From Actinomycetota bacterium (lineage in GTDB: Bacteria > Actinomycetota > Acidimicrobiia > IMCC26256 > VFJJ01), in contig VFJJ01000026.1 of NCBI GenBank assembly GCA_009886115.1, forward strand, positions 1 through 64,000: a stretch of DNA of 64,000 nt, read 5' to 3'. Below the pieces are notes generated by a model that was not told where the DNA came from, did not search any database, and saw only the letters and a program-made list of their open reading frames with translations. Each line of letters opens with the position of its first letter. Positions within the stretch are counted from its first letter, which is position 1. Both the position numbers and the translations under genes were made by a program. Shown here piece after piece: positions 12,180-64,000 of the stretch.

Positions 12180-12205
12180 CGACGCGCCCCACCCCCCGGT
12201 TCTGT

Positions 12206-12240
12206 GTGCAGAAATCGTCGCCAGGCGACGATTTCTGCAC
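12206..12240. repeat. perfect palindrome, family B-related copy
   Basis: gtgcagaaatcgtcgcc-a-ggcgacgatttctgcac: 17-bp perfect arms, C-rich left flank and G-rich right flank. Confidence 0.85.
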
Positions 12241-12261
12241 GAATTTGGGAGGGGAGGGGTG

Positions 12262-47205: not shown

Positions 47206-47215
47206 CGGCCGTTAC

Positions 47216-47279
47216 GTTCGATCCGTCAAATCAGTTCGTTCCGTTAAATCAGTTCAATCTGTTGAATCAGTTCGATCTG
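47216..47279. repeat. AT-rich 18-bp tandem repeat, about 3.5 copies
   Basis: gttcgatccgtcaaatca / gttcgttccgttaaatca / gttcaatctgttgaatca / gttcgatctg. Confidence 0.85.
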
Positions 47280-47332
47280 CCTGGTTCCGTTGTCGTTCAG
47301 GCGGCGCTGGCAGCGCACCCAACGGAGACCGC

Positions 47333-47962
47333 TCAGGCCCGACCGAAGAGACGATCGCCGGCGTCGCCCAGGCCCGGCACGATGAACGCCCGCTCGTCGA
47401 GCTTCTCGTCGATCGCCGCGGTGAAGATCCGGGCCTCCGGGAACGCCCGCTCGACCCGGTCGATCCCGTCGGGGGAGGCGATCATGCACACGATGATCAT
47501 GCGACTCGCCCCCCGGCGCTGCAGCATCTCGAGCGTGGCCACCATCGAGCCGCCGGTGGCCAGCATGGGGTCGATCACGATCACCGCCCGGTCGGTGAGA
47601 TCCTCGGGCAGCTTCTCGCAGTAGAGCGCAGGCTCGAACGTGGCCTCGTCGCGCCGGAGCCCGACCACGCCGACCTCGGCAGCCGGCAGCGCCGTGAGGA
47701 CCCCGTCGAGCAGACCCAGCCCGGCTCGCAGGATCGGCACGACGAGCGGCCCGGGCTCGGCGAGACGGGCTCCCGCAGCCGGGAGGCCGAGCGGGGTCGT
47801 CACCTCGACCTCCTCGGTGACGAAGTCGCGCGTGGCCTCGTAGCACAGGAACAGCGCCAGTTCGCGCACGAGGCCGCGGAAGGTGGCCGGGTCGGTGCGC
47901 TCGTCGCGGATGCGTACGAGGCGGTGGGCGACGAGGGGATGGTCGACGACGGTCACCGACAT
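47333..47962 (-). CDS. upp: uracil phosphoribosyltransferase
   Basis: VPILRAGLG, DPMLATGGS, IVPGLGDAGDRLFG. Confidence 0.97.
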   Translation of the reverse strand: MSVTVVDHPLVAHRLVRIRDERTDPATFRGLVRELALFLCYEATRDFVTEEVEVTTPLGLPAAGARLAEPGPLVVPILRAGLGLLDGVLTALPAAEVGVVGLRRDEATFEPALYCEKLPEDLTDRAVIVIDPMLATGGSMVATLEMLQRRGASRMIIVCMIASPDGIDRVERAFPEARIFTAAIDEKLDERAFIVPGLGDAGDRLFGRA

Positions 47963-48016
47963 GCTGGCTCCTGGTCCTTGAACACCGAGCTACCGACGTA
48001 GCTCGATCGCTGATGC

Positions 48017-48095
48017 CTGAATCGCTCTCTGAATCGCTGTCTGAATCGCTGTCTGGATCGCTGTCTGGATCGCTGTCTGGATCGCTGTCTGGATC
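48017..48095. repeat. 12-bp tandem repeat, about 6.5 copies
   Basis: Unit ctg(a/g)atcgctgt. The first three units carry A and the remainder carry G. Confidence 0.92.
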
Positions 48096-48240
48096 ACGTC
48101 GCCCATGTCGACGGGTGCACGTGCAACGATCTTGGCATGATCCCCGAGTCGAGGCCCCAGCCACAACCGCGACCATCGGCTTCGCACCAGCGCCCGGCCG
48201 CGCCGTCACGTAGGGCGGGTTCCCCCGAGCTCGGCCGCCG

Positions 48241-49164
48241 ATGACCGACGCGCCGTTGATCCTCACCGTCGGCGACCTCGTCGAGGACGTCGTCGTACGC
48301 ATCGACGGTCCCGTCGAGCCCGCGGCCGACACGGCGGTCTCGATCAGCCGTCATCGGGGCGGCAGCGCCGCGAACGTCGCCGTGGCCGTCGTGCGCGCCG
48401 GCGGACGAGCGCGTTTCGTCGGTCGCATCGGTCCCGACGTCCGGGGGAGCGCGCTCGTCGACGCGCTGCGCGACGAGGGCGTGGAAACGATCTGCGAGAC
48501 GGGTCCCGACGATGGCCCGTCGACGGGGACGATCGTCGTGATCGTCGACGGTGCGGCCGAGCGGTCGTTCCTCACCGATCGCGGCGCCTGCGTCGACCTC
48601 GGCGGACCCGACCCGGCCTGGCTCGACGGTGTCGATGCCGTGCACCTCCCCGCGTACTCCTTCTCGGGCGGGCGAATCGCAGCGACCAGCCGGCGCCTCT
48701 GCGAGCTCGCGCTCGAGCGGGGGCTGCCGGTGAGCGTCGACGCATCCTCGACGAGCGTGCTGCGAGATCTCGGCCCGGGACCCTTCTGGGCGGCGCTCAC
48801 CGAGCTCGGCGTGGGCATCCTGTTTGCCAACGAGGCCGAGGCCCATGTGCTGTCGGCGGTCGAGGGTTGGCCCGACAACGGCGCGATGCTGGTCGTCGTG
48901 AAGCACGGAGCCGCACCCACGATCGTGCATCGCCCCGGCCTCGGCCTCGTGGCGATCGCCGTCCCGACCATCGACACGGTGCTCGACACCACCGGCGCGG
49001 GCGACGCCTTCGCTGCCGGGTTCCTTCTCGCCACCTTCAGAGGCCATGGACCCGTCGATGCGGCCGAGGCGGCGCACGGGCACGCCTCCAGGGTCGTCAC
49101 GGCGCTCGGGGCCGGGGGTCCCGAACGCACCGGCCTCATGGCGCGAGCCCGGCGACTGCGATGA
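48241..49164 (+). CDS. PfkB-family kinase, probable pseudouridine kinase
   Basis: GGSAANVA, ANEAE, DTTGAGDAF. ATGA-coupled to psuG. Confidence 0.8.
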   Translation: MTDAPLILTVGDLVEDVVVRIDGPVEPAADTAVSISRHRGGSAANVAVAVVRAGGRARFVGRIGPDVRGSALVDALRDEGVETICETGPDDGPSTGTIVVIVDGAAERSFLTDRGACVDLGGPDPAWLDGVDAVHLPAYSFSGGRIAATSRRLCELALERGLPVSVDASSTSVLRDLGPGPFWAALTELGVGILFANEAEAHVLSAVEGWPDNGAMLVVVKHGAAPTIVHRPGLGLVAIAVPTIDTVLDTTGAGDAFAAGFLLATFRGHGPVDAAEAAHGHASRVVTALGAGGPERTGLMARARRLR

Positions 49165-50084
49165 GGACGATCCACATCTCCGACGAGGTCACCGACGCGC
49201 TGGGCGACGGTCGAGCCGTGGTGGCGCTCGAGTCGACGATCTTCAGCAGCCTCGGGCTGCCGGCGCCCCACAACGAGGATGCGCTCCGGCGCTGCGACGC
49301 AGCCGTGCGGGCCCGTGGCGCGGTGCCCGCGATGGTGGCCGTGCTCGACGGGGTCGCCCGGATCGGCCTCGACGGCACCGACGGAACCGATGTCGGACGG
49401 GTCCTGGCCGGCACCCACAAGCTCGCCGAACGTGACCTCCCCTGGGCGGTCGGCACCGGACTGGCCGTCGGTGTGACCACGGTGTCGGCGACGGTCGCCC
49501 TGGCCGCCGGCGCCGGCATCGCCGTGTTCGCCACCGGAGGGATCGGCGGTGTGCACCGCGGCGCCGAGCACAGCTTCGACGTGAGCTCCGACCTCACCGC
49601 CCTGGCCCGGCATCCCGTCACCACCGTGTGCGCCGGGGCCAAGGGGTTTCTCGATCTCCCCAAGACCCTCGAGTACCTCGAGACGCTCGGGGTGCCCGTG
49701 CTGGGCCTCGCCACCGACGAGTTCCCGGCGTTCTGGTGCCGAACGAGCGGGCTGCGCGTCCCGCACCGGGTGGAGGGCCCGGGCGCCATCGCCCAGATCG
49801 TGCGTGCGGCTCGCGCGCTCGGAGCCGTCAACGGCATCCTGGTCGTGAACCCGTGCCCCGAGGATGCGGCCCTGGCACGCGACACGATCGAGCCGGCGAT
49901 CGAGGACGCCCTGGCGGCGGCGGCGTCGTCCGGCATCACCGGCGGTGCGGTCACGCCGTTCGTCCTGAGCCACCTCGCCGATGCGACCGGCGGCCGCACG
50001 CTGCCGGCCAACCTGGCCCTCGCCGAGCACAACGCCAGTGTCGCCGCCCGGATCGCCGTGGCCCTCTCGGCGGCGTCGCGCTGA
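49161..50084 (+). CDS. psuG: pseudouridine-5'-phosphate glycosidase
   Basis: VVALESTI, TTVSAT, FATGGIGGVHRG, DVSSDL, CAGAK, TLEYLET, VTPFVL. Confidence 0.93.
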   Translation: MRTIHISDEVTDALGDGRAVVALESTIFSSLGLPAPHNEDALRRCDAAVRARGAVPAMVAVLDGVARIGLDGTDGTDVGRVLAGTHKLAERDLPWAVGTGLAVGVTTVSATVALAAGAGIAVFATGGIGGVHRGAEHSFDVSSDLTALARHPVTTVCAGAKGFLDLPKTLEYLETLGVPVLGLATDEFPAFWCRTSGLRVPHRVEGPGAIAQIVRAARALGAVNGILVVNPCPEDAALARDTIEPAIEDALAAAASSGITGGAVTPFVLSHLADATGGRTLPANLALAEHNASVAARIAVALSAASR

Positions 50085-50237
50085 GCCGACACAACGAGAT
50101 CGCAAGAACAACGGGTCATCGGCCAGGCCCGTCCGGGACCTCCGTCCCTGGTCCGAGTCCGTACCCGGCGGTAGCATCGCGTCCGAGAGCACTGCCCGAC
50201 TGGGGACCCGGTCGGAACAACAGAACAAGGGGATCAC

Positions 50238-51356
50238 GTGAAGAAGAACAAGTCCTGGCGGGTACTCCTCGCCCTCCTCGCAACGCTGACCATGGTGGCA
50301 GCAGCGTGTGGGGACGATGACGACGACACCACCGCTCCTGCCGACACCACCGCTCCTGCCGACACCACGACCGCACCCGCGGCCGCCACCACGGCCCCTC
50401 CGGCCGCCTCGGCGATATCGGTCGGGTTGGTCTACGACACCACCGGACGTGGCGACCAATCGTTCAACGATGCCGCCGCCGCTGGTGGAGACCAGGCGAC
50501 CGCTGAGTTGGGCGTCGAGTTCAGCGAGGCCACGCCCAACGCCGACGGCTCCAACCGGGCCGAGCTCCTGCAGCTCCAAGCCGACACGAACCCGCTCGTG
50601 TTCGGGATCGGGTTCCTCTTCGCCGACGAGATCAACGGCGTGGCCCTGGCGAATCCCACGGTGAACTTCGCAGTGGTCGACGGTGTACCGACCGAAGACC
50701 CGGCCCCGAACCTGGCCCTGCTGCTCTTCGCCGAGCACGAGGGCTCGTTCCTGATGGGTGCGGCCGCGGCGCTCAAGAGCGAGACGGGCACCATCGGGTT
50801 CATCGGTGGTGTCAACGTCGATCTCATCAAGAAGTTCGAGGCTGGATTCACAGCCGGCGCCCAGTACATCAACCCCGACATCGAGGTGCTCGCCGAGTAC
50901 ATCACCCAGCCGCCCGACTTCACCGGCTTCAACTCACCCGACCGGGGCAAGGAGATCGGCCTGTCGATGTACGACGACGGCGCCGACATCGTCTATGCCG
51001 CAGCCGGCGGGTCCGGTGGCGGGCTCTTCGAGGCGGCTAAGGAGTTCTCCGAGGGCGGGGACTCGAAGGTCTGGGCGATCGGCGTCGACTCCGACCAGTA
51101 CAACATCGTCGATCCGGCCGTGCGGGACTATATCCTCACCTCGATGCTCAAGCGGGTCGACGTTGCGGTGTTCAACACCATCGAGGCCGCCAACAGCGGG
51201 GCCTTTGTGCCCGGTTTCAACATCTTCAACCTGGCGGTCGACGGCGTGGGCTACTCGACGAGCGGCGGCTTCGTCGACGACATCACCGGGGACCTCGAGG
51301 ACATCAAGGCCAAGATCATCAGTGGCGAGATCGTCGTTCCCGAGACGCTCGCTTGA
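50238..51356 (+). CDS. BMP-family nucleoside-binding lipoprotein
   Basis: VAAAC lipobox, GRGDQSFND, FAEHEGSFL, AIGVDSDQ, SMLKRVD. Confidence 0.92.
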   Translation: MKKNKSWRVLLALLATLTMVAAACGDDDDDTTAPADTTAPADTTTAPAAATTAPPAASAISVGLVYDTTGRGDQSFNDAAAAGGDQATAELGVEFSEATPNADGSNRAELLQLQADTNPLVFGIGFLFADEINGVALANPTVNFAVVDGVPTEDPAPNLALLLFAEHEGSFLMGAAAALKSETGTIGFIGGVNVDLIKKFEAGFTAGAQYINPDIEVLAEYITQPPDFTGFNSPDRGKEIGLSMYDDGADIVYAAAGGSGGGLFEAAKEFSEGGDSKVWAIGVDSDQYNIVDPAVRDYILTSMLKRVDVAVFNTIEAANSGAFVPGFNIFNLAVDGVGYSTSGGFVDDITGDLEDIKAKIISGEIVVPETLA

Positions 51357-51409
51357 TCGTTCCCCAACGGGAGCTCTAGCTCGTTAGAGGTTGCACCACA
51401 CATGACGCC

Positions 51410-51445
51410 CTGCGGGGGGTCGGGCTACGGTTCGGCTCCTCGCAG
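51410..51445 (+). terminator. intercistronic RNA hairpin with a C(UACG)G tetraloop
   Basis: ctgcggggggtcgggc-tacg-gttcggctcctcgcag forms a 16-bp stem with several G-U pairs, so it folds fully only on the + strand. Confidence 0.65.
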
Positions 51446-51468
51446 TGCGTTCGGAAGGGGGACCGATC

Positions 51469-52995
51469 GTGACCGCCGCCGTCGAGCTCCAGGGAATCAC
51501 CAAGCGGTTTCCCGGCGTCGTCGCCAACGACGGGGTGACGTTCAGCGTCGAGTCAGGGGAGATCCACGCGCTCTGTGGTGAGAACGGCGCCGGGAAGTCG
51601 ACGCTGATGAAGATCCTCTACGGGATGCAGCCGCCTGATGAGGGAACGATGTCGGTCGACGGACGACCCGTCCACCTGCGCTCACCCAAGGACGCCATCG
51701 CGCTCGGGATCGGCATGGTGCACCAGCATTTCATGCTGGCCGACAACTTCACCGTCCTCGAGAACATCATCTTGGGCTCCGAGCCGTCGAAAGGGGCCGG
51801 CGTGCTCGATCTCACGGCCGCGCGGGCCCGGGTCGAGGAGCTCAGTCGGGCCTACGGCCTGGACATCCACCCCGACCAGGTCGTCGAGGACCTCGAGGTC
51901 GGCGAACGCCAGCGGGTCGAGATCATCAAGGTGCTCTTCCGGGGAGCCCGCATCCTGATACTCGACGAGCCGACCGCGGTCCTCGTCCCCGACGAGGTCG
52001 ACGAGCTGTTCCGCAACCTCAGGGAGCTCAAGGCCAACGGGGTCACGGTGATCTTCATCGACCACAAGCTCGACGAGGTCCTCGAGATCTCCGACCGCAT
52101 CACCGTGCTGCGGGCTGGTCGGACCGTCGGCACCCGTGACGCTGGTTCGGTGACCGCCGCAGAGCTGGCCGAGATGATGGTCGGCTCCGAGCTCCCGAGC
52201 CCGGCAACCGGTGAGACCACCGTCACCGATTCGGTGGCGTTCGCCGTTCGGGGCTTGACGATCGCCGGCGACGGTGGACGGGCGATCGTCGATTCCATCG
52301 ACATGACCGTCAGGCGGGGCGAGGTCGTGGGGGTCGCCGGGGTCGAGGGCAACGGGCAGGCCGAGCTCATCGAGGCCTTGCTGGGGCTGCGACACGCCCA
52401 GGGGACCATCGAGCTCGATGGCACCGACATCTCCCACTGGTCGGTTCGGCGGCGGCGCAACGCCGGGCTCGGCTACATCCCCGAGGATCGCCACCGTCGC
52501 GGGCTCATGCTCGACGCGCCGCTCTGGGAGAACGCCATGCTCGGCCATCAGGCCCGATCGCCCAATGCGCGAGGGATCTGGATCGACCGGGCTGGGGCCC
52601 GGGGCCGAACCGAGGAGATCGTCGAGCGCTACGACGTCAGGACACCCAACATCGACGTCACCGCTCGGGCGCTCTCGGGAGGGAACCAGCAGAAGCTCAT
52701 CATCGGGCGTGAGATGCTGGCGGAGCCCAAGGTCCTCATCGCGGCCCATCCGACGCGAGGCATCGATGTCGGGGCCCAGGCTTCGGTGTGGAACCTCCTC
52801 CGCCAGGCCCGCAGGGACGGTCTGGCGGTCGTGCTCGTCTCAGCCGACCTCGACGAGCTCATCGGGTTGTCAGACACGCTGGTCGTCATGCTTCGAGGCC
52901 GCTTGGTCGCCACGCTCGACCCGGCCCGGGTGACCCCGAGGGAGCTGGGATCCTGGATGACCGGGGCCGCGCTCGACACTGGAGACGCCGCATGA
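51469..52995 (+). CDS. nucleoside ABC importer, tandem ATP-binding protein
   Basis: GENGAGKS, MVHQHF, LDEPTAVL, LSGGNQQK. Confidence 0.93.
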   Translation: MTAAVELQGITKRFPGVVANDGVTFSVESGEIHALCGENGAGKSTLMKILYGMQPPDEGTMSVDGRPVHLRSPKDAIALGIGMVHQHFMLADNFTVLENIILGSEPSKGAGVLDLTAARARVEELSRAYGLDIHPDQVVEDLEVGERQRVEIIKVLFRGARILILDEPTAVLVPDEVDELFRNLRELKANGVTVIFIDHKLDEVLEISDRITVLRAGRTVGTRDAGSVTAAELAEMMVGSELPSPATGETTVTDSVAFAVRGLTIAGDGGRAIVDSIDMTVRRGEVVGVAGVEGNGQAELIEALLGLRHAQGTIELDGTDISHWSVRRRRNAGLGYIPEDRHRRGLMLDAPLWENAMLGHQARSPNARGIWIDRAGARGRTEEIVERYDVRTPNIDVTARALSGGNQQKLIIGREMLAEPKVLIAAHPTRGIDVGAQASVWNLLRQARRDGLAVVLVSADLDELIGLSDTLVVMLRGRLVATLDPARVTPRELGSWMTGAALDTGDAA

Positions 52996-54122
52996 CCGCG
53001 GCACGTCGCAGCCGGTCCGAGCTCCTCCTCGGGTTCGCCGCCCCGGTGGCCGCCGTGCTGATAGCGCTCGTTGTTGCGTCCATCGTGCTGATGATCTCTG
53101 GGAGCAACCCCCTCGATGCCTGGGCCAGCATGTGGGAATTCGGGACCCGTCTCGAGACCAGCGTCGATGCGATCAATCGAGCCGTTCCGCTGTACATCGC
53201 GGGGATCGCCGTGGCGCTGGGCTTTCGGATGAACCTGTTCAACATCGGCGTCGAAGGTCAGTACATCCTCGCTGCGCTGGTCGCGACTGAGGTGGGGACC
53301 AAGATCGACCTCCCCGGCCCGCTGCACGTCGCGGTCATCGTGCTGGTCGCCATGTCGGTCGGGGCGGCCTGGGCCGCCGTCCCGGCGATCCTCAAGGTGA
53401 CCCGGGGCGTCAACGAGGTGATCGCCACGATCATGTTGAATGCCATCGGCGTCTCGTTCGTCGCCGCCGAGCTCCTCGGGCGGTGGGACAGTGCCGGCCA
53501 GGACACCCGGACCGCCGACATCGGGGAATCGGGCCACGTCCCCGGCATCAACTGGCTCCTGGAGATCTTCACCAGGGACGTGGGCAAGGGTCGCGAGCTG
53601 TACGGGTTCCTTTTCGTGGCCATCGCCGTCGGCATCGGGTATCACGTCCTGCTCACCCGCACGGTCTTCGGCTACGACCTCCGGGCGAGCGGAGCCAACC
53701 CGAGCGCGGCCGAGGCGAGCGGTGTCCCGTCCAAGCGCATGATCCTGGCCGCCATGATCGGCTCGGGGGCCATCGCCGGGCTCATCGGCCTGCCCGACAT
53801 CCTCGGCGAGCTGTACCACTACGGCGGCGACTTCTCGCAGGGCTTGGGATTCCTGGGGATCGCCGTTGCTCTGCTGGGTCGAAACCATCCTGGCGGCATC
53901 GTCGCGGCCGCGTTGATCTTCGGCTACCTCGACGCCAGCTCCCCGATCCTCGAGGTCGAGGGTGACGCGCCGCGCGAGATCGTGACGATCATGAAGGGCG
54001 TGATCATCTTCGCTGCGGTGGTGGCATACGCGGTGACCGAGCGGTCGAGGCGGCGGCGCCAGGTCGCGGCGGCGGCCGACGCGGTGCCGACGACCTCGAC
54101 CGAGATCGGGGCGAACCCATGA
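52992..54122 (+). CDS. nucleoside ABC importer permease 1
   Basis: LFNIGVEGQ, GVNEVIATIMLN, GIAVALLGRNHP. Confidence 0.92.
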   Translation: MTAARRSRSELLLGFAAPVAAVLIALVVASIVLMISGSNPLDAWASMWEFGTRLETSVDAINRAVPLYIAGIAVALGFRMNLFNIGVEGQYILAALVATEVGTKIDLPGPLHVAVIVLVAMSVGAAWAAVPAILKVTRGVNEVIATIMLNAIGVSFVAAELLGRWDSAGQDTRTADIGESGHVPGINWLLEIFTRDVGKGRELYGFLFVAIAVGIGYHVLLTRTVFGYDLRASGANPSAAEASGVPSKRMILAAMIGSGAIAGLIGLPDILGELYHYGGDFSQGLGFLGIAVALLGRNHPGGIVAAALIFGYLDASSPILEVEGDAPREIVTIMKGVIIFAAVVAYAVTERSRRRRQVAAAADAVPTTSTEIGANP

Positions 54123-55324
54123 GCGAGCGCGGCCTGACCGACGCTGCGCTCCCCGGCTCACCGGGCCGGGTCGATCTCGCTCACCTCTGGAAGCAGCGGT
54201 GGTTCCGCTGGCCCGTCTTCGCGCTGGGCGGGATGATCGTCCTGCAGCTCGTCGAGTGGATCGCCGATCCCGAATCCGAGGAACTCCTCTCGGGCGGCCA
54301 GGCCGGGGCCATGCTTCGTTGGTCGGTTCCCCTGCTCCTCGCCGGGCTGGGCGGGATGTTCGCCGAGCGAGCCGGGATCGTGAACATCGGGCTCGAGGGG
54401 ATGATGGTCCTCGGGACGTGGTTCGGGGCCTGGGGATCCGTGAAGTACGGACCGGTGATCGGCACGGCGATCGGTCTGCTGGGAGGAGCGCTGGGTGGGC
54501 TTCTCCACGCCATCGCCACCGTCAGCTTCGGCGTCAACCACATCATCTCGGCCGTGGCGATCAACATCATGGCCCCCGGCGTCACCCGCTTCCTGGCCGA
54601 CGAGATCTTCAGCGGATACGCGGGCGGCAGCATCTCGCAGTCTCCGCGCGTTGCCTCGTTCGGCTCGGTCGAGCTCCCGGTGCTCGATCGCGTCAGCTGG
54701 CTGACGATCATCGCCTTCGCGTTCGTCCCGCTGGCGTGGTACGTGCTGTGGCGAACGCGCTTCGGTCTTCGCCTGCGCGCTGCGGGCGAGCACCCCTCGG
54801 CCGGTGACTCGCTCGGGGTCAACGTCTACCGCTACCAGTATGCCGGGGTCGTGATCTCGGGCGCGCTGGCCGGTCTAGCCGGGTCGTTCATCGTGACCGA
54901 GCTGACCGGGATCTACCGGGAGGGTCAGACCAACGGGCGCGGCTTCATCGGGTTGGCGACGATGATCTTCGGCAACTGGCGTCCAGGCGGAACGGCGTTG
55001 GGGGCCCTCCTCTTCGGCTATGCCGACGGCCTCCAGCTCCGCGACCGCGACGGCGTGCACGCGCTGCTGCTCGTCGGCGTCGTCGTCCTGGCCGTCCTCG
55101 CCCTGCGGCGGGCCCTCAGCCCGAAGCGGACGGTCGTGGAGGTCGGGCTTCCCGCAGTGATCGCGACGTTGATCGTGGTCTGGTACCTGCTCCGCGACAC
55201 GGTGCCGCCGACCTTCAACCAGGTGACCCCGCACATCCTCACCCTGGTGGTGCTGGTGTTCTCAGCCGGCCGCTTGCGCCCGCCCAAGGGTGCCGGGCAG
55301 ATCTGGCGCAAGGGCGAACATTGA
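54119..55324 (+). CDS. nucleoside ABC importer permease 2
   Basis: ERAGIVNIGLEG, RAAGEHP, GRGFIGLATMIFGNW. Confidence 0.92.
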   Translation: MSERGLTDAALPGSPGRVDLAHLWKQRWFRWPVFALGGMIVLQLVEWIADPESEELLSGGQAGAMLRWSVPLLLAGLGGMFAERAGIVNIGLEGMMVLGTWFGAWGSVKYGPVIGTAIGLLGGALGGLLHAIATVSFGVNHIISAVAINIMAPGVTRFLADEIFSGYAGGSISQSPRVASFGSVELPVLDRVSWLTIIAFAFVPLAWYVLWRTRFGLRLRAAGEHPSAGDSLGVNVYRYQYAGVVISGALAGLAGSFIVTELTGIYREGQTNGRGFIGLATMIFGNWRPGGTALGALLFGYADGLQLRDRDGVHALLLVGVVVLAVLALRRALSPKRTVVEVGLPAVIATLIVVWYLLRDTVPPTFNQVTPHILTLVVLVFSAGRLRPPKGAGQIWRKGEH

Positions 55325-55776
55325 CGACCGCGTCGAAAGCGTCGACCGGGGAGGCGATCGACTGGGGGGCATTGCACACCGCAGCCGTCGCTGTGGCCCA
55401 ACGGGCTCATGCGCCGTACTCCCATCTCCACGTCGGCGCCGCCGGGCTGGTCGACGACGGGCGCATCGTCACCGGGTGCAACGTCGAGAACGCCTCGTAC
55501 GGGCTCACGCTGTGCGCCGAGTGCGGGCTGGTGTCGGCGTTGCATGCAACGGGGGGCGGACGGCTCGTGGCCGTGACCATCGTCGACGGTGGGGGAGCGC
55601 CCCTCATGCCGTGCGGCCGGTGCCGGCAGCTGCTGTGGGAAGCCGGGGGAGCCGAGCTGCTCGTCGACGGCTCGGGCGCGCCGCAGCCGATGCGAGACAT
55701 CCTTCCCGGAGCCTTCGACGCCACCCACCTTCCCGATGTCCACCTTCCCCCGGCTGATTCGCAGGACGTGAGCTGA
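55321..55776 (+). CDS. cdd: cytidine deaminase
   Basis: APYS, GCNVENASYG, LCAEC, PCGRCRQ. Confidence 0.95.
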   Translation: MTTASKASTGEAIDWGALHTAAVAVAQRAHAPYSHLHVGAAGLVDDGRIVTGCNVENASYGLTLCAECGLVSALHATGGGRLVAVTIVDGGGAPLMPCGRCRQLLWEAGGAELLVDGSGAPQPMRDILPGAFDATHLPDVHLPPADSQDVS

Positions 55777-55779
55777 GGC

Positions 55780-57075
55780 ATGGACATCATCGACGTGATC
55801 CGCACCAAGCGCGACGGCGGCACGCTCTCCGACGAGCAGATCCGGTGGTTCATCGACGCGTACACCAAGGGGATCGTGGCCGACGAGCAGGCGTCAGCTC
55901 TGCTCATGGCCATCTTCTTCCGATCGCTCACGGCGCACGAGCTGGCCACATGGACCCGGGCCATGATCGACAGCGGCGAGCGGCTCGATCTGTCGACGGT
56001 GACCCGTCCCACCGTCGACAAGCACTCCACCGGCGGCGTGGGCGACAAGGTCTCGTTGATCCTCACGCCGCTCGTGGTGGCCTGCGGTGCGGCCGTCCCC
56101 CAGCTCTCGGGCCGGGGCCTGGGCCACACCGGCGGCACGCTCGACAAGATGGAATCGATCCCCGGTTGGCAGGCGCTCTTGTCAAACGAGCGCTTCGTCG
56201 AGATCCTGCGCACCAGCGGCGCGGTGATCGCTGCGGCCGGCGCGGGTCTGGCGCCCGCCGACCGGAAGCTCTATGCGCTGCGCGACGTCACCGGCACGGT
56301 CGAGTCGATCCCGCTCATCGCCTCGTCGATCATGTCGAAGAAGATCGCCGAAGGGACCTCGGCGCTCGTGCTCGACGTGAAGTTCGGCTCGGGGGCGTTC
56401 TTCCCCGACGTGGCCCAGGCTCGGGAGCTGGCCACCACCATGGTCGGGATCGGCAACGCCAACGGCGTCAAGACCGTGGCGTTGCTCACCGCCATGGAGA
56501 CCGTCCTCGGCCGGACCGCAGGCAACGCCCTCGAGGTCACCGAGTCGATCGCCTGCCTCCGAGGCGGTGGACCGGCCGACCTGGTCGAGGTCACCCTGGC
56601 GTTGGCCCGGGAGATGCTGGCGCTCGTGGGTCTGGGCCCGCTCGACACGCCGGGTGCCGTCGATCCCGCCACGGCGCTGGCCGACGGACGGGCCTACAGG
56701 GCGTGGTGCGAGATGGTCGCCGCCCAGGGGGGCGATCCCGACGCTCCGCTGCCGGTTGCGCCCCATCGGCACATCGTGGTCGCTCCCGGCAGCGGTGTGC
56801 TGAGCCGCCTCGATTGCCGAGCGGTGGGCATCGCAGCGTGGCGTCTCGGTGCCGGCCGGGCCCGCAAGGAGGACCCGGTGAGCGCCAGCGCCGGCATCGT
56901 TTGCCTCGCCAAGCCCGGCGACGCTGTGCGGGCCGGCGAGCCCTTGCTGGAGCTGCACGCCGACGATCCCGAGCGGTTCAGCGGTGCGCTCGCCGCGCTG
57001 GCCGACGGGGCGATCGCCGTCAGCGATGAGGCTCCGCCCGTGCCCCGGCTCGTCCTCGAACGGATCGCGTCGTGA
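55780..57075 (+). CDS. deoA: thymidine/pyrimidine-nucleoside phosphorylase
   Basis: DKHSTGGVGDK, SGRGLGHTGGTLDK, SIMSKK. Confidence 0.95.
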   Translation: MDIIDVIRTKRDGGTLSDEQIRWFIDAYTKGIVADEQASALLMAIFFRSLTAHELATWTRAMIDSGERLDLSTVTRPTVDKHSTGGVGDKVSLILTPLVVACGAAVPQLSGRGLGHTGGTLDKMESIPGWQALLSNERFVEILRTSGAVIAAAGAGLAPADRKLYALRDVTGTVESIPLIASSIMSKKIAEGTSALVLDVKFGSGAFFPDVAQARELATTMVGIGNANGVKTVALLTAMETVLGRTAGNALEVTESIACLRGGGPADLVEVTLALAREMLALVGLGPLDTPGAVDPATALADGRAYRAWCEMVAAQGGDPDAPLPVAPHRHIVVAPGSGVLSRLDCRAVGIAAWRLGAGRARKEDPVSASAGIVCLAKPGDAVRAGEPLLELHADDPERFSGALAALADGAIAVSDEAPPVPRLVLERIAS

Positions 57076-57128
57076 CCGGGGTCGCCCGGACTGCAACCCC
57101 CAACCCCAACCCCGACACCCCAACCCCT

Positions 57129-57181
57129 CCCAAATTTGTGCAACGAACGTCGCCCCGCGACGCTCGTTGCACAAATTTGGG
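57129..57181. repeat. palindromic element, family B
   Basis: cccaaatttgtgcaacgaacgtcgc-ccc-gcgacgctcgttgcacaaatttggg (one mismatch). Confidence 0.9.
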
Positions 57182-57200
57182 GGCGGATCGGACGATCGCG

Positions 57201-58040
57201 GTGATCACGGCCGAGCAACGCGAGCGCTATCAGACCGACGGGTACCTCGTGCTCGAAGGTTTCGTGACGCCCGCGGTGTGCGAGGCGCTCATGGCCCGTA
57301 GCGCCGAGCTGGTCGAGACGTTCGACCCGGCGAGCGTGCGGTCGATCTTCAGCACCCACGAACAGACCCGCACGTCCGACGAGTACTTCCTGAGCTCGGG
57401 AGACGAGATCCGCTTCTTCTTCGAGGAGAACGCCTTCGGCGCCGACGGCCAGCTCGCGCGGTCCAAGGAGCTCTCGCTCAACAAGTTGGGCCACGCCATG
57501 CACGACCTCGACCCGGTGTTCGAAGCGTTCTCGCACACGCCCGCGCTGGCCGAGCTGGCCCGTGATCTGGGGATGCGCGACGCCCGGGTGCTCCAGTCGA
57601 TGTACATCTTCAAGTCGCCCGCTCTGGGTGGCGAGGTGACGTTGCACCAGGACGCCACCTTCCTCTTTACCGATCCCATCACGGTGACGGGGTTCTGGTT
57701 CGCGTTGCAGGACGCCTCCATCGAGAACGGATGCCTGTGGGCCGTCCCGGGCGGGCATCGGCGCTTCCCCGTCCGCAAGCTCTTCAAGCGGGCACCGGGA
57801 GGCGGCACCGAGTTCGAGATCATTGATCCGGCCCCGATCCCGACCGACGGCGAGGTCGCGCTCGAGGTCCCGCAGGGCACGCTGATCGTGCTCGACGGGC
57901 AGCTTCCCCACCGTTCCGACGCCAACCGCTCGGCGCTCTCGCGTCACGCTTACTCGCTGCACGCCATCGAGGGCTGGGCCGAGTACCCCGGCTGGAACTG
58001 GCTGCACCGGCGGGATTCGATGCCCCTGCGTCCGTTCTAG
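57201..58040 (+). CDS. PhyH-family Fe(II)/2-oxoglutarate dioxygenase, PHYHD1-like (alternative start 57072)
   Basis: FFFEE, NKLGHAMHD, QSMYIFK, HQDATF (HxD), ENGCL, LPHRS..NRS..SRHAYSLH. Confidence 0.88.
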   Translation: MITAEQRERYQTDGYLVLEGFVTPAVCEALMARSAELVETFDPASVRSIFSTHEQTRTSDEYFLSSGDEIRFFFEENAFGADGQLARSKELSLNKLGHAMHDLDPVFEAFSHTPALAELARDLGMRDARVLQSMYIFKSPALGGEVTLHQDATFLFTDPITVTGFWFALQDASIENGCLWAVPGGHRRFPVRKLFKRAPGGGTEFEIIDPAPIPTDGEVALEVPQGTLIVLDGQLPHRSDANRSALSRHAYSLHAIEGWAEYPGWNWLHRRDSMPLRPF

Positions 58041-58044
58041 CCCC

Positions 58045-58091
58045 AAATTTGTGCAACGAACGTCGCCTGGCGACGTTCGTTGCACAAATTT
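58045..58091. repeat. palindromic element, family B
   Basis: aaatttgtgcaacgaacgtcgcc-t-ggcgacgttcgttgcacaaattt, 23-bp perfect arms starting 5 nt after the dioxygenase stop. Confidence 0.9.
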
Positions 58092-58144
58092 CGGGGGGAA
58101 ATCGGTCCGCGAGGGCAAGCGGCCTCAGGTCGCTACCATGAGTC

Positions 58145-59278
58145 ATGGCACGGACATCGAACATCGCTGGGGGACTGTCGCGGGCGGCGATCAAGCGGGC
58201 GCCCAAGGTGTTGCTGCACGATCACCTCGATGGCGGCGTCCGACCCGTCACGGTGATCGACCTGGCCTCCGAGCATGGCTACACGGGTCTGCCGACCACC
58301 GATCCCGACGATCTGGCGCTGGCGTTCACCCAGGGAGCTTCCCGCCACAGCCTCCCGCTGTACCTCGAGACCTTCACCCACACCGTGGGGGTCATGCAGC
58401 ACAAGGATGCCCTCACCCGGGTGGCGGCCGAGTGCGCCGAGGATCTGGCCGAGGACGGCGTCGTCTACGCCGAGGTGCGCTTCGCTCCCGAGCTGCACAT
58501 GGAGCAGGGGCTCACCCTCGACGAGGTGGTCGAGGCGGTGCTCGACGGTTTCCGGATCGGCAGCGCCGGGCGACCCATCACCATCGGAACACTCGTCACC
58601 GCGATGCGCACCGCCGCACGTTCGCACGAGATCGCCGAACTTGCCCTGCGCTGGCGCGACTTCGGTGTCGTCGGCTTCGACATCGCCGGCGAGGAGAAGG
58701 GGTACCCACCGAGCCGCCATCTCGACGCCTTCGAGCTCGTGCACCGCGAGAACTTCCACGTCACGATCCACGCCGGTGAGGCCTACGGGCTCCCGTCGAT
58801 CTGGGAGGCGCTGCAGGTGTGTGGCGCCGAGCGGCTCGGCCACGGCGTGCGAATCGTCGACGACATCACCATCGGCGACGACGGTGAGGCCCGGCTGGGC
58901 CTTCTGGCCAGCTTCGTGCGCGACCGGCGCATCCCGCTCGAGCTGTGCCCCACGTCGAACGTCCACACGAGCGCCGCGGCCTCGATCGCCGAGCATCCGA
59001 TCGGGCTCTTGCGCCGCTTGCGTTTCCGGGTCACCGTGAACACCGACAACCGACTGATGAGCGACGTCACGATGAGCGACGAGTTCGCCAACCTGGCCGA
59101 GGCGTTCGGGTATGGCTGGTACGACTTCGAGTGGCTGACCCTCAACGCCATGAAGAGCGCCTTCTGGCCCTTCGACCAGCGCCTGAAGATCATCGACACG
59201 GTCATCAAGCCGGGCTATGCGTCGTTGCAGCACTCCGAGGTCGGCAGCTCCGGGGGCCTCACCGTCTCGGGGCGATAG
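58145..59278 (+). CDS. add: adenosine deaminase
   Basis: [45 protein letters not shown] -10-like box at 58134-58139. Confidence 0.95.
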
Positions 59279-59337
59279 CCGTCGGTGGAGCCCATTCGAC
59301 GGGCGCCCGTCACGCGGCGACTGGAAGACTGCTCGCC

Positions 59338-60069
59338 ATGATCGAGCGAGAGATCGATGTCGAGACGCCCGACGGTCTGATGAAGACCTTCGTCGTGCAC
59401 CCGGCACATGATGGACCGTCGCCGGTTGTGCTGTACCTCATGGACGCGCCGGGGATCCGTCCGGCCCTGCACGACATGGCGTCGCGGTTGGCGTCGGCCG
59501 GGTACTACGTCATGATGCCCTACCTGTTCTACCGGGGCGGGCCGTTCCGTACGTTCGGCCAATCAGACGAGGACATGCACGCCCGCCAGGAGCTCATGCA
59601 GACCGTGACGCCGACGAACATCGTGGGCGACGCCGCCGCTGTGTTGGATGTTGCCGCGAGTGATCCGGCAGCCCGCGGCGGCCCGGTGGGCGCCGTCGGG
59701 TTCTGCATGAGCGGCGGGCTGGTGGTCGCACTGGCCCGGAGCATGCCCGAACGCATCGCCGCGGTGGCGTCGATCCACGGCGCGTGGCTCGTGCGCGACA
59801 CCGTTGACTCGCCGCACGTCGGGCTGGAGACGGCGCGCGCTGAGGTGTACCTCGGTTGGGCCGACAACGACCCCACCGCCCCGACCGAGGACCTTCACGT
59901 CATGCGCGACGCCCTCGAGCGGGCTGGTGTGCGCTACACACTCGACTTCATCGCCGACGCGGTGCACGGCTACGCCCCACCGGGAACCGAGCGCTACAAC
60001 CGAGCAGCATCGGAGCTGCACTGGGAACGGGTCCATTCGCTGCTGCGGCGCACCCTGAAGGAGACCTGA
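59338..60069 (+). CDS. dienelactone hydrolase family protein
   Basis: MDAPGIR, GFCMSG, AVHGY. Confidence 0.88.
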   Translation: MIEREIDVETPDGLMKTFVVHPAHDGPSPVVLYLMDAPGIRPALHDMASRLASAGYYVMMPYLFYRGGPFRTFGQSDEDMHARQELMQTVTPTNIVGDAAAVLDVAASDPAARGGPVGAVGFCMSGGLVVALARSMPERIAAVASIHGAWLVRDTVDSPHVGLETARAEVYLGWADNDPTAPTEDLHVMRDALERAGVRYTLDFIADAVHGYAPPGTERYNRAASELHWERVHSLLRRTLKET

Positions 60070-60071
60070 CC

Positions 60072-61346
60072 GTGACGAGAGACCTGGACGGCACAGACCG
60101 CGACGACCGCTACGTCATCGTGTCGTCAGACGCCCATGCCGGTGCGACGATCACCGGGTACAAGGCGTTCCTGGCATCGTCCTGGCACGACGAGTTCGAC
60201 CGTTGGGCGGCGGCGGTCGTCAATCCGTGGCACGACACGAGCGACACAACCAACTGGAACCACACCGACCGCCTCGCGGCCATGGACCTCGAAGGTGTCG
60301 CCGGCGAGGTGCTGTTCCCCAACACGCTTCCCCCGTTCTTCGACATCCTGGCCCACCTGAGCGGCGTGCCCCGGACCCGCGACGAGCTCGATCGCCGCTG
60401 GGCGGGGCTCCAGGCGCACAACCGCTGGCTCGTCGAGTTCTGCGGCCAGGCCCCCGATCGGCGCCGCGGCCTCATCCAGCTGCTTCCCAACGACATCGAC
60501 GCCGCGATCGCCGAGATGCGCGTGGCCCGGGAGCACCCGGTCATCGGTGGCGTCATGCTCCCGGCGGTTCCGCCCAACCACACGGTCGAGCCCTACTTCC
60601 ACGAGCGCTACGACCCGCTCTGGGCGGCGTGCGTCGAGCTCGGTTTCCCCGTCCACCAGCACCAGGGGACGGGGGCCCCCGACGTCGGTCTCGATCAGGA
60701 CGTCGCGCGGTCGCTCTTCTTCGTCGACCTCGAGCTCTGGACCCGCCTCACGATGAGCCACCTCATCGTCGGGGGCGTCTTCGAGCGCCATCCCCGGTTG
60801 CAGGTCGTGTGGACCGAGATGCCCGGGCTGCGCTGGGCCGTCGAGGACCTCGAGCGCATGACCCGCAACCTCGGCGTCGTCCAGTCACGCTTCTTCGGCA
60901 CCCGCTACAACCTGTCGCACACGTTCGGCTCGGCCACCGCCGATGGCCTCTCGCTCACGCCCATCGAATACTTCCGTCGCAACTGCCTCATCGGCGCCAG
61001 CATGATGCCGCGCCACGAGATCCACCTCGTCCACGTGCTCGGCACCGACCGGATCATGTGGGGTCACGACTTCCCGCACGAGGAGGGCTCGACGCCGTAC
61101 ACGTCCGACGCGCTGCGCGCCACGTTCGCCGACTTCGACGAGACCGAGTGCCGGACGCTGCTCGGAGAGACCGCTGCCGCGCTCTACGGGTTCGACCTCT
61201 CGGTCCTGACCCCGCTCGCACAGCGGATCGGTCCCTCCGTCGACCTCGTCCACACCCCGCTGACCGCCGACCCCCCGTCTCGGGGATCAGCGTTCTGGGA
61301 GCCCGACGAGCTCGCCCTGGCGCTCGGCAGCCGCCGAGGTCCGTGA
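60072..61346 (+). CDS. amidohydrolase_2 family metal-dependent hydrolase
   Basis: IVSSDAH, EVLFPN, AHNRWL, GVFERHP..WTE, MWGHDFPHEEG. Confidence 0.88.
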   Translation: MTRDLDGTDRDDRYVIVSSDAHAGATITGYKAFLASSWHDEFDRWAAAVVNPWHDTSDTTNWNHTDRLAAMDLEGVAGEVLFPNTLPPFFDILAHLSGVPRTRDELDRRWAGLQAHNRWLVEFCGQAPDRRRGLIQLLPNDIDAAIAEMRVAREHPVIGGVMLPAVPPNHTVEPYFHERYDPLWAACVELGFPVHQHQGTGAPDVGLDQDVARSLFFVDLELWTRLTMSHLIVGGVFERHPRLQVVWTEMPGLRWAVEDLERMTRNLGVVQSRFFGTRYNLSHTFGSATADGLSLTPIEYFRRNCLIGASMMPRHEIHLVHVLGTDRIMWGHDFPHEEGSTPYTSDALRATFADFDETECRTLLGETAAALYGFDLSVLTPLAQRIGPSVDLVHTPLTADPPSRGSAFWEPDELALALGSRRGP

Positions 61347-61408
61347 CCGCGACCCGGACCGGTTCCGACGTCCCAGTCGGTGAGGCGGGCGCGGCGCATG
61401 GCTACGAC

Positions 61409-62260
61409 TCACATCGTGGTTTCGGGCCCTTCGAGGCCCTCGAGGACGCCGCGCAGGAGCGCCATCATGCGCGGCCCGGCGTCGAGGCCCGCGGCGAGCA
61501 CGTCGTGGTGGTCGAGTCCGTCGCCCGAGAGGCCCGCAGCCAGATTGGTGACCAGCGAGACACCGAGCACCTCGGCGCCGAGGTGCCGGGCGGCGATCGT
61601 CTCGAGAACGGTCGACATGCCGACGAGGTCGGCGCCGAGCAGGCGCAGCATGCGGATCTCGGCCGGGGTCTCGTAGGCGCCGCCCAGCAGACCGGCGTAG
61701 ACGCCCTCGCCCAGGGTCGCGTCGACGCGATGGGCCAACGCCCGCAGGCGCGGCGAGTACGCGTCGGTCAGGTCGACGAAGCGTGAACCCCGATCGGACG
61801 GGAACGGCCCGGCCATCGGCGAGGCGCCCGTGAGGTTGAGGTGATCCGACAGCACCACCGGCGTGCCCACCCCGAAGGCGGGGTTGATCGAGCCCGCCGC
61901 GTTGGTGAGCACAACGGTGCGACAACCCGCGGCGATGGCCGTCCTGACACCGTGCACGACCGTGGCGACGGGATGGCCTTCGTAGTAGTGGCACCGTCCG
62001 GCGAGCACGAGCACGGCCCGGCCGCCGACGGACAGCGACGACAGCGTGCCCTTGTGACCGCCCACGCTCGGCGCCGGCATGCCGGGCAGCGAGCTCATGG
62101 GGATCTCGGCGATGACCGTGCCGAGGCCCGCTGCGGCGTCGCCCCAACCCGAGCCCAACACGACGGCGGCATCGTGGCGCTCGACGCCGACCGCGCTCGC
62201 CAGGGCGGCGGCGGCCTCCTCGGCCAGGACGAAGGGATCGGTGTTCGTCGTTGCGCTCAT
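61409..62260 (-). CDS. punA: purine-nucleoside phosphorylase (trimeric type)
   Basis: [43 protein letters not shown]. Confidence 0.95.
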
Positions 62261-63133
62261 TCACGTCCCCATGGGATGCCAGACCGACTTCATCTCGCAG
62301 AAGGCTGTCAGAGCCGCGACCGACTGAGCCGATTCGGCGAGCCAGTCGCACTCGCCCCGACCCGGGTTGATGACGCGCAACACGTGGTCGGCGCCGAGAA
62401 ACGCGACCTTGCGGCTCAGCTCGACATCGGCGCCGCCCACGTCGAGCGCGTCGACCTCCTCGTGCCCGGCCAGCCAGGGGGCCAGCTCGGCGGCGCGCCC
62501 GGTGAGGAGGTTCACGACACCTCCGGGCACGTCGGACGTCGCCAGCACCTCGGCCAACGACACCGCCGACAGCGGCCAGCGACCACCGACGACAGCCACG
62601 ACGGTGTTACCGCACACGAGCGCCGGGGCCAGGCGCGACACCAAGCCGAGCAGCGGCGGATCGTCGGGGGCGAGGAGCCCCACGACACCGATCGACTCGG
62701 GGATCGTGAAGGCGAAGTACGGGCCAGCCACGGAGTTCTGCGTGCCGAGGACATGCCCGAGCTTGTCGGCCCATCCCGCGTACCAGACCCAACGGTCGAC
62801 GGCCGTCGAGACCTCGACCTCGGCCTCGCGCTCCGAGGAGCCGCCGGCGACGAGCTCGCTCTCGAACTGGGACCGACGAGATTCCATCAACTCGGCGACG
62901 CGGTAGAGGATCTGTCCCCGGTTGTACGGCGTACGGGCCGCCCAACCCGCCCAGGCGCCCCGGGCGGCCCTCACGGCGTCGCGGAGATCCTTGCGCGAGG
63001 CCCTCGACGCCTGGGCGACGGTCGCTCCCGTGGGGGTGACGACCGGGTACGTGCGTCCCGACTCGGAACGGGGGAACTCGCCACCCACGAACAGCTTGAG
63101 GGTGCGGCGGACAGCGAGACGGTCGTCGGTCAT
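62261..63133 (-). CDS. short aldehyde-dehydrogenase-like protein (NAD-binding-type domain only)
   Basis: KLFVGGEFPRSESGR, RGQILYRVAE, GVVNLLTG. 290 aa, no ELGGK or catalytic Cys region. Confidence 0.85.
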   Translation of the reverse strand: MTDDRLAVRRTLKLFVGGEFPRSESGRTYPVVTPTGATVAQASRASRKDLRDAVRAARGAWAGWAARTPYNRGQILYRVAELMESRRSQFESELVAGGSSEREAEVEVSTAVDRWVWYAGWADKLGHVLGTQNSVAGPYFAFTIPESIGVVGLLAPDDPPLLGLVSRLAPALVCGNTVVAVVGGRWPLSAVSLAEVLATSDVPGGVVNLLTGRAAELAPWLAGHEEVDALDVGGADVELSRKVAFLGADHVLRVINPGRGECDWLAESAQSVAALTAFCEMKSVWHPMGT

Positions 63134-64000
63134 GACCCTGACCCTCCCGCGAGCCCGGCTGGGGACGGGGACGGCAGCGGGGACGGCGGCGGGGACGGGG
63201 ACGGGAAGGGTTCGAGCTCGAGGTAGGACTCGAGGCCGTGGCGGCCTCCCTCACGACCGAACCCGCTCTCGCGATAGCCCCCGAACGGCGATGCCGGATC
63301 GAACCGGTTGAACGTGTTGGCCCACACGACCCCGGCCCGGAGCCTCTGCGTCGTCCAGAGGATCTTGGAGCCCTTCTCGGTCCACACCCCGGCCGAGAGC
63401 CCGTAGCGGGTGTTGTTGGCCTTGGCCACCGCTTCCTCGGGGGTGCGGAACGTGAGCACCGACAGCACGGGTCCGAAGATCTCCTCCCGGGCGATGCGGT
63501 GCGTCTGCTGCACGTTGCTGAACACCGTGGGAGGGAACCAGTAGCCGGCCTCGGGCAGCGCACACTCGGGCTGGTAGATCTCCGCCCCCTCGGCGACACC
63601 GGCATCGACCAGCTCGGTGATGCGCTCGAGCTGCTCGGCGCTGTTGATCGCCCCGAGGTCGGTGTTCTTGTCGAGCGGATCGCCGACCCGCAACGTCGAG
63701 AGGCGCACCTTCAGCCGGTCGAGCACCTCGTCGGCCACGGACTCCTGGACGAGCAGGCGTGAGCCGGCGCAGCACACGTGACCCTGGTTGAACCAGATGC
63801 CGTTGACGATCCCCTCGACGGCCTGGTCGAGGGCGGCGTCGTCGTAGACGATGTTGGCCGCCTTGCCTCCGAGCTCGAGGGTGAGGCGTGTGGGCCGGTC
63901 CTTGCCCGCGAGGACTCGCTGGATCTCCTTGCCCACACTGGTGGAGCCGGTGAAGGCGACCTTGTCGACGTCGGGATGGGTGACCAGCGCAGCACCCGTC
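63130..64000 (-). CDS. aldehyde dehydrogenase (3' part; 5' end outside the window)
   Basis: FTGST, LELGGK, NQGHVCCAG, EEIFGP, PFGGYRESG. Confidence 0.92.
   Translation of the reverse strand, partial: TGAALVTHPDVDKVAFTGSTSVGKEIQRVLAGKDRPTRLTLELGGKAANIVYDDAALDQAVEGIVNGIWFNQGHVCCAGSRLLVQESVADEVLDRLKVRLSTLRVGDPLDKNTDLGAINSAEQLERITELVDAGVAEGAEIYQPECALPEAGYWFPPTVFSNVQQTHRIAREEIFGPVLSVLTFRTPEEAVAKANNTRYGLSAGVWTEKGSKILWTTQRLRAGVVWANTFNRFDPASPFGGYRESGFGREGGRHGLESYLELEPFPSPSPPPSPLPSPSPAGLAGGSGS

Follow-up and report, generated by a model that had tools for sequence, protein, structure and literature searches.

We analysed the gene neighbourhood of a predicted Fe(II)/2-oxoglutarate (2OG) dioxygenase in a 64,000-nucleotide stretch of DNA (the window) from an Actinomycetota bacterium (Acidimicrobiia; IMCC26256; VFJJ01), corresponding to positions 1–64,000 of contig VFJJ01000026.1 in assembly GCA_009886115.1; the region examined is 47333–64000. 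An original prediction, made from the sequence alone, had proposed that this region recycles modified nucleosides, with a PHYHD1-like dioxygenase set among genes for pseudouridine catabolism and for the import, deamination and phosphorolysis of nucleosides. The G+C content of the window is about 70%, and genes were therefore chosen by third-position G+C and then by family searches; identities were assigned with Pfam profiles, NCBIfam equivalog cut-offs and homology to solved structures. All of the genes named in that prediction are present at the coordinates it gave, its title having left out only upp (47333–47962). The nucleoside-related genes are as follows.

47333–47962, minus strand: upp, uracil phosphoribosyltransferase, divergent from and upstream of the gene run (NCBIfam NF001097, 276 bits against a cut-off of 114).
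48241–49164, plus strand: PfkB-family kinase, presumed psuK by context, with a stop codon overlapping the psuG ATG (PF00294, E 1.3e-36).
49161–50084, plus strand: psuG, pseudouridine-5'-phosphate glycosidase (PF04227 Indigoidine_A, E 8.5e-105, full profile length).
50238–51356, plus strand: Bmp/PnrA-like substrate-binding protein of an ATP-binding cassette (ABC) importer (PF02608, E 6.6e-51).
51445–52995, plus strand: ABC transporter ATPase with two ATP-binding domains (PF00005, two stretches).
52992–54122, plus strand: ABC permease 1 (PF02653), with an ATG at 52992 overlapping the ATPase stop codon.
54119–55324, plus strand: ABC permease 2 (PF02653), with a 4-nt overlap with permease 1.
55321–55776, plus strand: cdd, cytidine deaminase (NF004064, 173 bits against a cut-off of 74).
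55780–57075, plus strand: deoA, thymidine/pyrimidine-nucleoside phosphorylase (NF004490, 616 bits against a cut-off of 269).
57201–58040, plus strand: PHYHD1-type Fe(II)/2OG dioxygenase of 279 amino acids, predicted 2'-O-methyl nucleoside demethylase (PF05721).
58145–59278, plus strand: add, adenosine deaminase (NF006847, 568 bits against a cut-off of 412).
61409–62260, minus strand: punA, purine-nucleoside phosphorylase, convergent and downstream (NF006054, 315 bits against a cut-off of 218).

The ten genes between 48241 and 59278 (PfkB kinase, psuG, Bmp, ATPase, permease 1, permease 2, cdd, deoA, dioxygenase and add) are all on the plus strand, and there are 4-nt overlaps at four of the junctions. 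Within this run cdd, deoA and add, co-directional and all above their NCBIfam equivalog cut-offs, form a cdd-deoA-add catabolic cluster, and the dioxygenase lies co-oriented between deoA and add, as had been proposed. The BMP-type importer is likewise confirmed by its binding protein, ATPase and two permeases, and solved relatives of the binding protein include TmpC (2fqw) and BmpD (6shu). The pseudouridine genes are secured in part: psuG is assigned by its profile match, and it adjoins the PfkB kinase with a 4-nt overlap in the arrangement of a PsuK/PsuG-type pair, but the kinase reaches no specific NCBIfam equivalog, its best solved relatives are adenosine and sugar kinases, and its identity as the pseudouridine kinase psuK is presumed from context.

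The dioxygenase matches the whole of the PhyH profile (PF05721, E 3.7e-42, profile positions 1–213 of 213). Homologues align from residue 1 or 2, so we take the GTG at 57201 as the right start; a longer open reading frame (ORF) from 57072 was rejected as the start of the dioxygenase, the extra part only reading through a hairpin. In a sequence search of solved structures there is a full-length match to human PHYHD1 (residues 4–275 against 6–285 of the chain, E 2.3e-65), and other solved relatives are far weaker, with SnoK next (E 1.1e-06), human PhyH matching over a part only (E 9.3e-05) and no EctD chain reaching E 0.01. Identity to human PHYHD1 is in the range 42–45% (about 122 of 272 positions counted, and 42% by Foldseek). 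An AlphaFold model built from 21 sequences has a predicted local distance difference test score (pLDDT) of 89.3 and a predicted template modelling score (pTM) of 0.90, and its template modelling (TM) score is 0.89 to PHYHD1 (2opw/3obz). The same model gives TM 0.63 to PhyH (2a1x, 18% identity) and to EctD 4mhr, EctD chains lying at 0.61–0.66 with 19–20% identity, and the overall range for PhyH, EctD, SnoN/K and proline hydroxylases is 0.55–0.68. In both sequence and fold the enzyme is thus closer to PHYHD1 than to PhyH or EctD, in keeping with the label it had first been given. NCBIfam holds no model for the dioxygenase, the best match, to methylphosphonate hydroxylase, scoring 26 bits where the cut-off is 500. 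The family is large, with 7926 of 8000 scored candidates reaching E 1e-10; apart from the protein itself the closest relative is 82% identical, and those that follow are at most 69% identical.

The iron triad and 2OG arginine correspond to H149, D151, H237 and R248 (human H156, D158, H246 and R257), and the residues that contact the ribose and base of the docked nucleoside in human PHYHD1 (K102, H105, Q139, W277 and F161) are kept as K95, H98, Q132, W267 and F154; all nine are invariant in 21 bacterial relatives. The motif QSMYIFK is present, the HxD motif stands in the context LHQDATF, and the stacking residue is Phe. Human S154 is replaced by T147. The PHYHD1-specific helix region (human Q56–L71) is covered by the alignment, and the model has a short helix at 61–64 only, with pLDDT of 55–71 for residues 41–60. 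Because sequence match, fold and substrate-contact residues agree, we conclude that, as judged by sequence and by the modelled fold, the dioxygenase is a bacterial member of the PHYHD1 type proper.

The chemistry of this type has been described recently. According to a 2025 paper (PMC12709175), PHYHD1, FJS and their relatives oxidatively demethylate free 2'-O-methyl nucleosides, and not nucleotides or RNA, so that the activity named in the original prediction is in print. PHYHD1 enzymes from human, mouse, zebrafish, fly, a fungus, plants and a giant virus demethylate the 2'-O-methyl nucleosides of adenosine, cytidine, guanosine and uridine (Am, Cm, Gm and Um), both in vitro and in vivo; a zebrafish knockout accumulates free 2'-O-methyl nucleosides, and human PHYHD1 isoform C, which has an internal deletion, is inactive (PMC12709175).

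We examined the neighbourhoods of related dioxygenase genes in the best 80 of at least 586 confirmed loci from a scan of species-representative genomes (loci are designated L with a number). Neighbouring genes were sought by tblastn with the window's proteins, with those within 10 kb counted as nearby, and loci were grouped into phyla by record title. The 80 comprise 22 loci from Actinomycetota (Acidimicrobiales, Ilumatobacteraceae, Microthrixaceae and Aquihabitans), 41 from Acidobacteriota, five labelled Heliobacteriaceae that nest inside the Acidobacteriota clade, eight from Myxococcota, three from Pseudomonadota and one from SAR324. In 21 of the 22 Actinomycetota loci, which are mostly Acidimicrobiia, add lies downstream of the dioxygenase, and in 16 its aligned part starts within 170 nt. 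Importer genes are upstream in 20 of the 22 and upp is near, adjoining add, in 19; cdd is nearby in 9 and deoA in 8, and punA and psuG are found within 10 kb in only 3 and 2 respectively. The pseudouridine genes, given the two occurrences of psuG, are not a conserved part of the cluster.

The adjacency of the dioxygenase and add is kept across different gene orders: cdd-deoA-dioxygenase-add, permease-dioxygenase-cdd-deoA-add, permease-dioxygenase-add-upp, and deoA-second deaminase-dioxygenase-add. Further nucleoside genes beside the dioxygenase encode a PNP_UDP_1 phosphorylase (Pfam; L031 and L056), DeoC (L002, L003, L005 and L012) and PsuG. A second A_deaminase paralogue is located upstream of the dioxygenase, besides the downstream add, in seven Acidimicrobiia loci (L002 7436–8569, L003 8875–9981, L005 8871–9986, L040, L058 7492–8565, L059 8003–9055 and L067 6911–7957), and the window has one deaminase gene of this kind only. 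Since the dioxygenase-add adjacency recurs in 21 of the 22 Actinomycetota loci, we conclude that the arrangement is more than chance.

Taken with the published chemistry, these observations support the interpretation that the dioxygenase is probably a 2'-O-methyl nucleoside demethylase that feeds the flanking deaminases and phosphorylases. The computation supports this reading, and from it we infer the substrate, co-transcription of the genes and the flow of product between the enzymes. In the proposed route the Bmp-type ABC system would import nucleosides, and the dioxygenase, with Fe(II), O2 and 2OG, would hydroxylate the methyl carbon of free 2'-O-methyl ribonucleosides; the resulting hemiacetal would break down to formaldehyde and the ordinary nucleoside, so removing the 2'-O-methyl block. 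The products of cdd and add would then deaminate cytidine and adenosine, those of deoA and punA would release the bases by phosphorolysis, and upp would salvage uracil, while the PfkB kinase and PsuG would process pseudouridine.

An alternative explanation is that the enzyme does act on nucleosides, with another chemistry or substrate, such as 2'-hydroxylation of deoxynucleosides, cleavage of 2'-O-alkyl groups other than methyl, or oxidation of nucleosides methylated on the base. The context is that of generic nucleoside catabolism, deoA encodes a thymidine phosphorylase, and DeoC is present in four related loci, all of which would suit such an activity, as would the S154 to T147 change. There are also precedents: the fungal 2OG oxygenase PDN2'H, cited in PMC12709175, hydroxylates free deoxynucleosides at C2', and FJS takes off a 2'-O-allyl group as well (PMC12709175, Table 1). 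All five of the docked contacts to the 2'-O-methyl ribonucleoside are retained, however, and the tested enzymes of Table S2 with the PHYHD1-type motif set are all reported active on 2'-O-methyl nucleosides, except isoform C (PMC12709175). We regard this alternative as unlikely, though it is worth keeping in view.

Several observations weigh against assigning the dioxygenase a demethylating role in nucleoside catabolism. In the 58 non-Actinomycetota loci there is no nucleoside gene within 10 kb by tblastn, even at E 1e-4 and 30% coverage, and a nucleoside-metabolism domain is absent from all 113 ORFs that adjoin the dioxygenase there; one Actinomycetota locus, L054, also lacks the linkage. The linkage to nucleoside genes expected by the original prediction thus holds in Actinomycetota and does not extend to the other phyla of the best 80, and it comes from essentially one lineage. 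In a quick maximum-likelihood tree of 81 rows the dioxygenase is sister to a mainly Ilumatobacteraceae clade inside the Actinomycetota group (Shimodaira-Hasegawa-like approximate likelihood ratio test, SH-aLRT, 92), and the trait of having add downstream needs only 3 changes on this tree. Within one class the linkage is thus long-standing and stable, and it does not represent many independent events; it comes near to being one evolutionary event, and inherited synteny could explain part of it. The neighbourhood picture moreover rests on 80 of the at least 586 confirmed loci. As to the enzyme itself, the contact residues derive from docking in PMC12709175 and not from a solved complex, and the four bacterial proteins tested there (FJS, Acidisoma, S. 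colocasiae and Poribacteria) are without the PHYHD1 motifs in the available Table S2. Finally, two very stable hairpins, described below, part the dioxygenase from deoA and add, and might interrupt transcription.

A homologue on a plasmid adds to these points. The plasmid collection yielded one, from Azospirillum ramasamyi (L081, NZ_CP029836.1 15858–16709), which is 44% identical and so at the same level as the human enzyme, and which sits in an unrelated context of two S-adenosylmethionine (SAM) methyltransferases, a TauD/TfdA dioxygenase and a 1397-amino-acid hypothetical protein. In L081 the equivalent of H105 is replaced by arginine, whereas the dioxygenase at 57201–58040 keeps the full residue set; this suggests that L081 is probably a diverged paralogue with another substrate, and the case indicates that an identity of 40-odd per cent is not enough by itself to settle the substrate.

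These patterns would be consistent with a dioxygenase that has no functional tie to its neighbours, having been inserted once into the conserved cdd-deoA-add cluster of an Acidimicrobiia ancestor and kept there by inertia, with an unrelated small molecule as its substrate. That the linkage is confined to a single lineage, and needs 3 changes on the tree, fits this account, as do the Azospirillum homologue in its methyltransferase/TauD cluster and the close homologues among unrelated genes in the 58 other loci, where the neighbours include 11 GNAT, 8 chromate transporter, 8 LexA and 5 MFS genes and the recurrent neighbour clusters are unrelated to nucleosides. Against it, add remains the neighbour of the dioxygenase in at least four gene orders and among dioxygenase subclades that are about 55–65% identical, the spacing of 0–90 nt in most loci suggests co-transcription, and the nearest characterised relatives act on nucleosides. 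We therefore consider a chance passenger quite improbable. That the enzyme is a phytanoyl-CoA hydroxylase, or another lipid or ectoine hydroxylase, as the Pfam family name and the source annotation 'phytanoyl-CoA hydroxylase' on many homologues would have it, is scarcely credible given its weak similarity to human PhyH in sequence and fold, the failure of EctD to reach E 0.01, and the published finding that human PHYH is inactive on 2'-O-methyl nucleosides and FJS made only trace hydroxylated phytanoyl-CoA, which indicates that the two activities are separate (PMC12709175).

The spacers on either side of the dioxygenase each contain a 55-nt palindromic hairpin, and the window has a third copy.

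57129–57183: palindromic hairpin of 55 nt between deoA and the dioxygenase (RNA fold -48.6 kcal/mol, z -7.3).
58042–58096: second 55-nt copy, 93% identical, 2 nt after the dioxygenase stop codon (RNA fold -49.2 kcal/mol, z -8.1).
12187–12259: third, diverged copy between two minus-strand genes, its stem kept through compensatory paired changes.

No shuffled sequence equalled the fold of either 55-nt copy. The elements are flanked by C-rich and G-rich sequence and lack a T-run, and none of the 80 related loci contains the motif; the sole Rfam match is to a plant microRNA (28 bits against a gathering score of 200), which we judge to be chance. We considered whether the hairpins are scars of a recent insertion and rejected this, because the deoA-dioxygenase-add order exists without hairpins in L001, L015 and L029 and because the window has the third copy at another site. 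A small family of intergenic palindromes belonging to the source genome is the better reading. A promoter scan of 47000–64000 gave zero promoter-like sites, and three terminator-like sites against 3.9 expected.

Two genes without a link to nucleosides lie between add and punA, a dienelactone hydrolase (about 59338–60069, plus strand) and an Amidohydro_2 protein (60072–61346), and none of the 80 related loci has a counterpart of either. The nearest solved relatives of the Amidohydro_2 protein are PtmU3, DitZ and LigW-type (5-carboxyvanillate) decarboxylases. A thymidine-salvage scheme, in which the dioxygenase would be a thymine hydroxylase and the Amidohydro_2 protein an iso-orotate decarboxylase, was rejected on account of these relatives and the absence of a counterpart. 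A second dienelactone-hydrolase-family gene is present in the window at 44938–45747 (plus strand), likewise without a counterpart in related loci. Beyond punA, 62261–63999 (minus strand) holds aldehyde-dehydrogenase-like genes with no nucleoside link: a full-length-type aldehyde dehydrogenase at 63130–63999 that begins past the end of the window and, downstream of it and overlapping it by 4 nt, a 290-amino-acid ORF (62261–63133) whose match is limited to the N-terminal half of the Aldedh profile (positions 4–213 of 461). This pair recurs downstream of add, after the DeoC aldolase, in L002, L003 and L005, and the short gene therefore looks real and not broken.

Other neighbours recur in the related loci. 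A QueF-like small protein is encoded upstream of the dioxygenase on the opposite strand in five Ilumatobacteraceae loci (minus strand; L034 5429–5848, L046 8563–8943, L048 1697–2083, L053 4087–4473 and L067 8000–8449), directly adjacent in four of the five, and two of these loci also encode histone-deacetylase-family proteins (minus strand; L046 7451–8641 and L048 589–1662). Proteins of both kinds might act on other modified nucleosides or bases. In 11 Acidobacteriota-type loci (L011, L016, L018, L020, L026, L032, L035, L044, L062, L065 and L071) the next gene downstream of the dioxygenase encodes a GNAT acetyltransferase, and in two Acidimicrobiia loci (L012 10871–11434 and L031 5835–6398) a GNAT gene stands between the dioxygenase and add; the GNAT subfamilies differ, so this recurrence may be coincidence. 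In two loci of Pseudomonadota metagenome-assembled genomes (MAGs) an aldehyde dehydrogenase gene starts less than 100 nt downstream of the dioxygenase (L004 10905–12365 and L041 1379–2848), and a link to the formaldehyde by-product is possible. The MAG contigs labelled Heliomicrobium/Heliobacteriaceae (Bacillota; L016, L020, L060, L065 and L076) carry dioxygenases that nest in the Blastocatellia/Acidobacteriota clade and share its chromate transporter and GNAT neighbours, and the labels may be binning or taxonomy errors.

A broader proposal can be put forward tentatively, although we would not yet favour it: that Acidimicrobiia have a dedicated, operon-encoded route for scavenging modified RNA nucleosides from the environment, running from the Bmp importer through the PHYHD1-type demethylase to the standard deaminases and phosphorylases. 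Under this proposal PsuK/PsuG, the second adenosine-deaminase paralogue (seven loci), and the QueF-like (five loci), GNAT and histone-deacetylase-like proteins could be lineage-specific add-ons for other modifications, and it would be the widespread bacterial PHYHD1 orthologues, rather than enzymes of the FJS type, that correspond to the animal enzyme and share its physiological role.

Until December 2025 the breakdown of 2'-O-methyl nucleosides was described as a largely unexplored subject. In the available text of the paper that defines PHYHD1 (PMC12709175) there is no bacterial gene context, the phrases 'genomic context' and 'neighbo...' being absent and the single 'operon' referring to the E. 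coli pyr genes, and no bacterial enzyme of the PHYHD1 type proper is among those tested. Our full-text literature searches found no report linking PhyH-family or PHYHD1 genes to cdd, deoA, add or a bacterial gene cluster. The cluster offers independent, genome-based support for the PHYHD1 reaction serving bacterial nucleoside salvage or catabolism. It also points to cultured carriers, Aquihabitans daechungensis (L012) and Ilumatobacter, and to candidate partners in the importer, the second deaminase paralogue and the accessory enzymes. The PHYHD1-type assignment further corrects a database label, since many members of the family (thousands of sequences) are named 'phytanoyl-CoA hydroxylase' or 'phytanoyl-CoA dioxygenase family protein'.

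The locus can be compared with four known systems. Rv3313c–Rv3315c of Mycobacterium tuberculosis is an example of the actinobacterial cdd-deoA-add salvage cluster; it has the same three genes in the same order and direction, with upp and punA nearby, and the present locus differs in placing the dioxygenase between deoA and add and in having the Bmp importer and psuK/psuG directly upstream. With eukaryotic and viral PHYHD1 the dioxygenase shares 42–45% identity to the human enzyme over the full length, a TM score of 0.89, the triad, the 2OG arginine, the five contact residues, and QSMYIFK, which in the available Table S2 occurs only in the human, mouse, zebrafish, Arabidopsis, tobacco and Fadolivirus entries, the fly and fungal entries being slight variants (PMC12709175). 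It differs in being bacterial and encoded beside nucleoside deaminases, phosphorylases and an importer, in having threonine at the position of S154, and in the low confidence of the helix region in the model. The FJS-type enzymes (FJS, Acidisoma, S. colocasiae and Poribacteria) share the Pfam family, bacterial origin and probably the reaction, but have no QSMYIFK, WHQDSGY at the HxD motif and a stacking tyrosine, whereas the present enzyme has LHQDATF and phenylalanine as in eukaryotes; a reading of the motifs in the available Table S2 thus sets them apart (PMC12709175). The other known bacterial route for 2'-O-methyl nucleosides is that of the hydrolases RK9NH, LbNH and AgNH, which cleave the glycosidic bond to give 2'-O-methylribose (PMC12709175). 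RK9NH is encoded beside a DERA-like aldolase, and DeoC is found in four of the loci related to ours, but the proposed route here is an oxidative demethylation that would return the canonical nucleoside.

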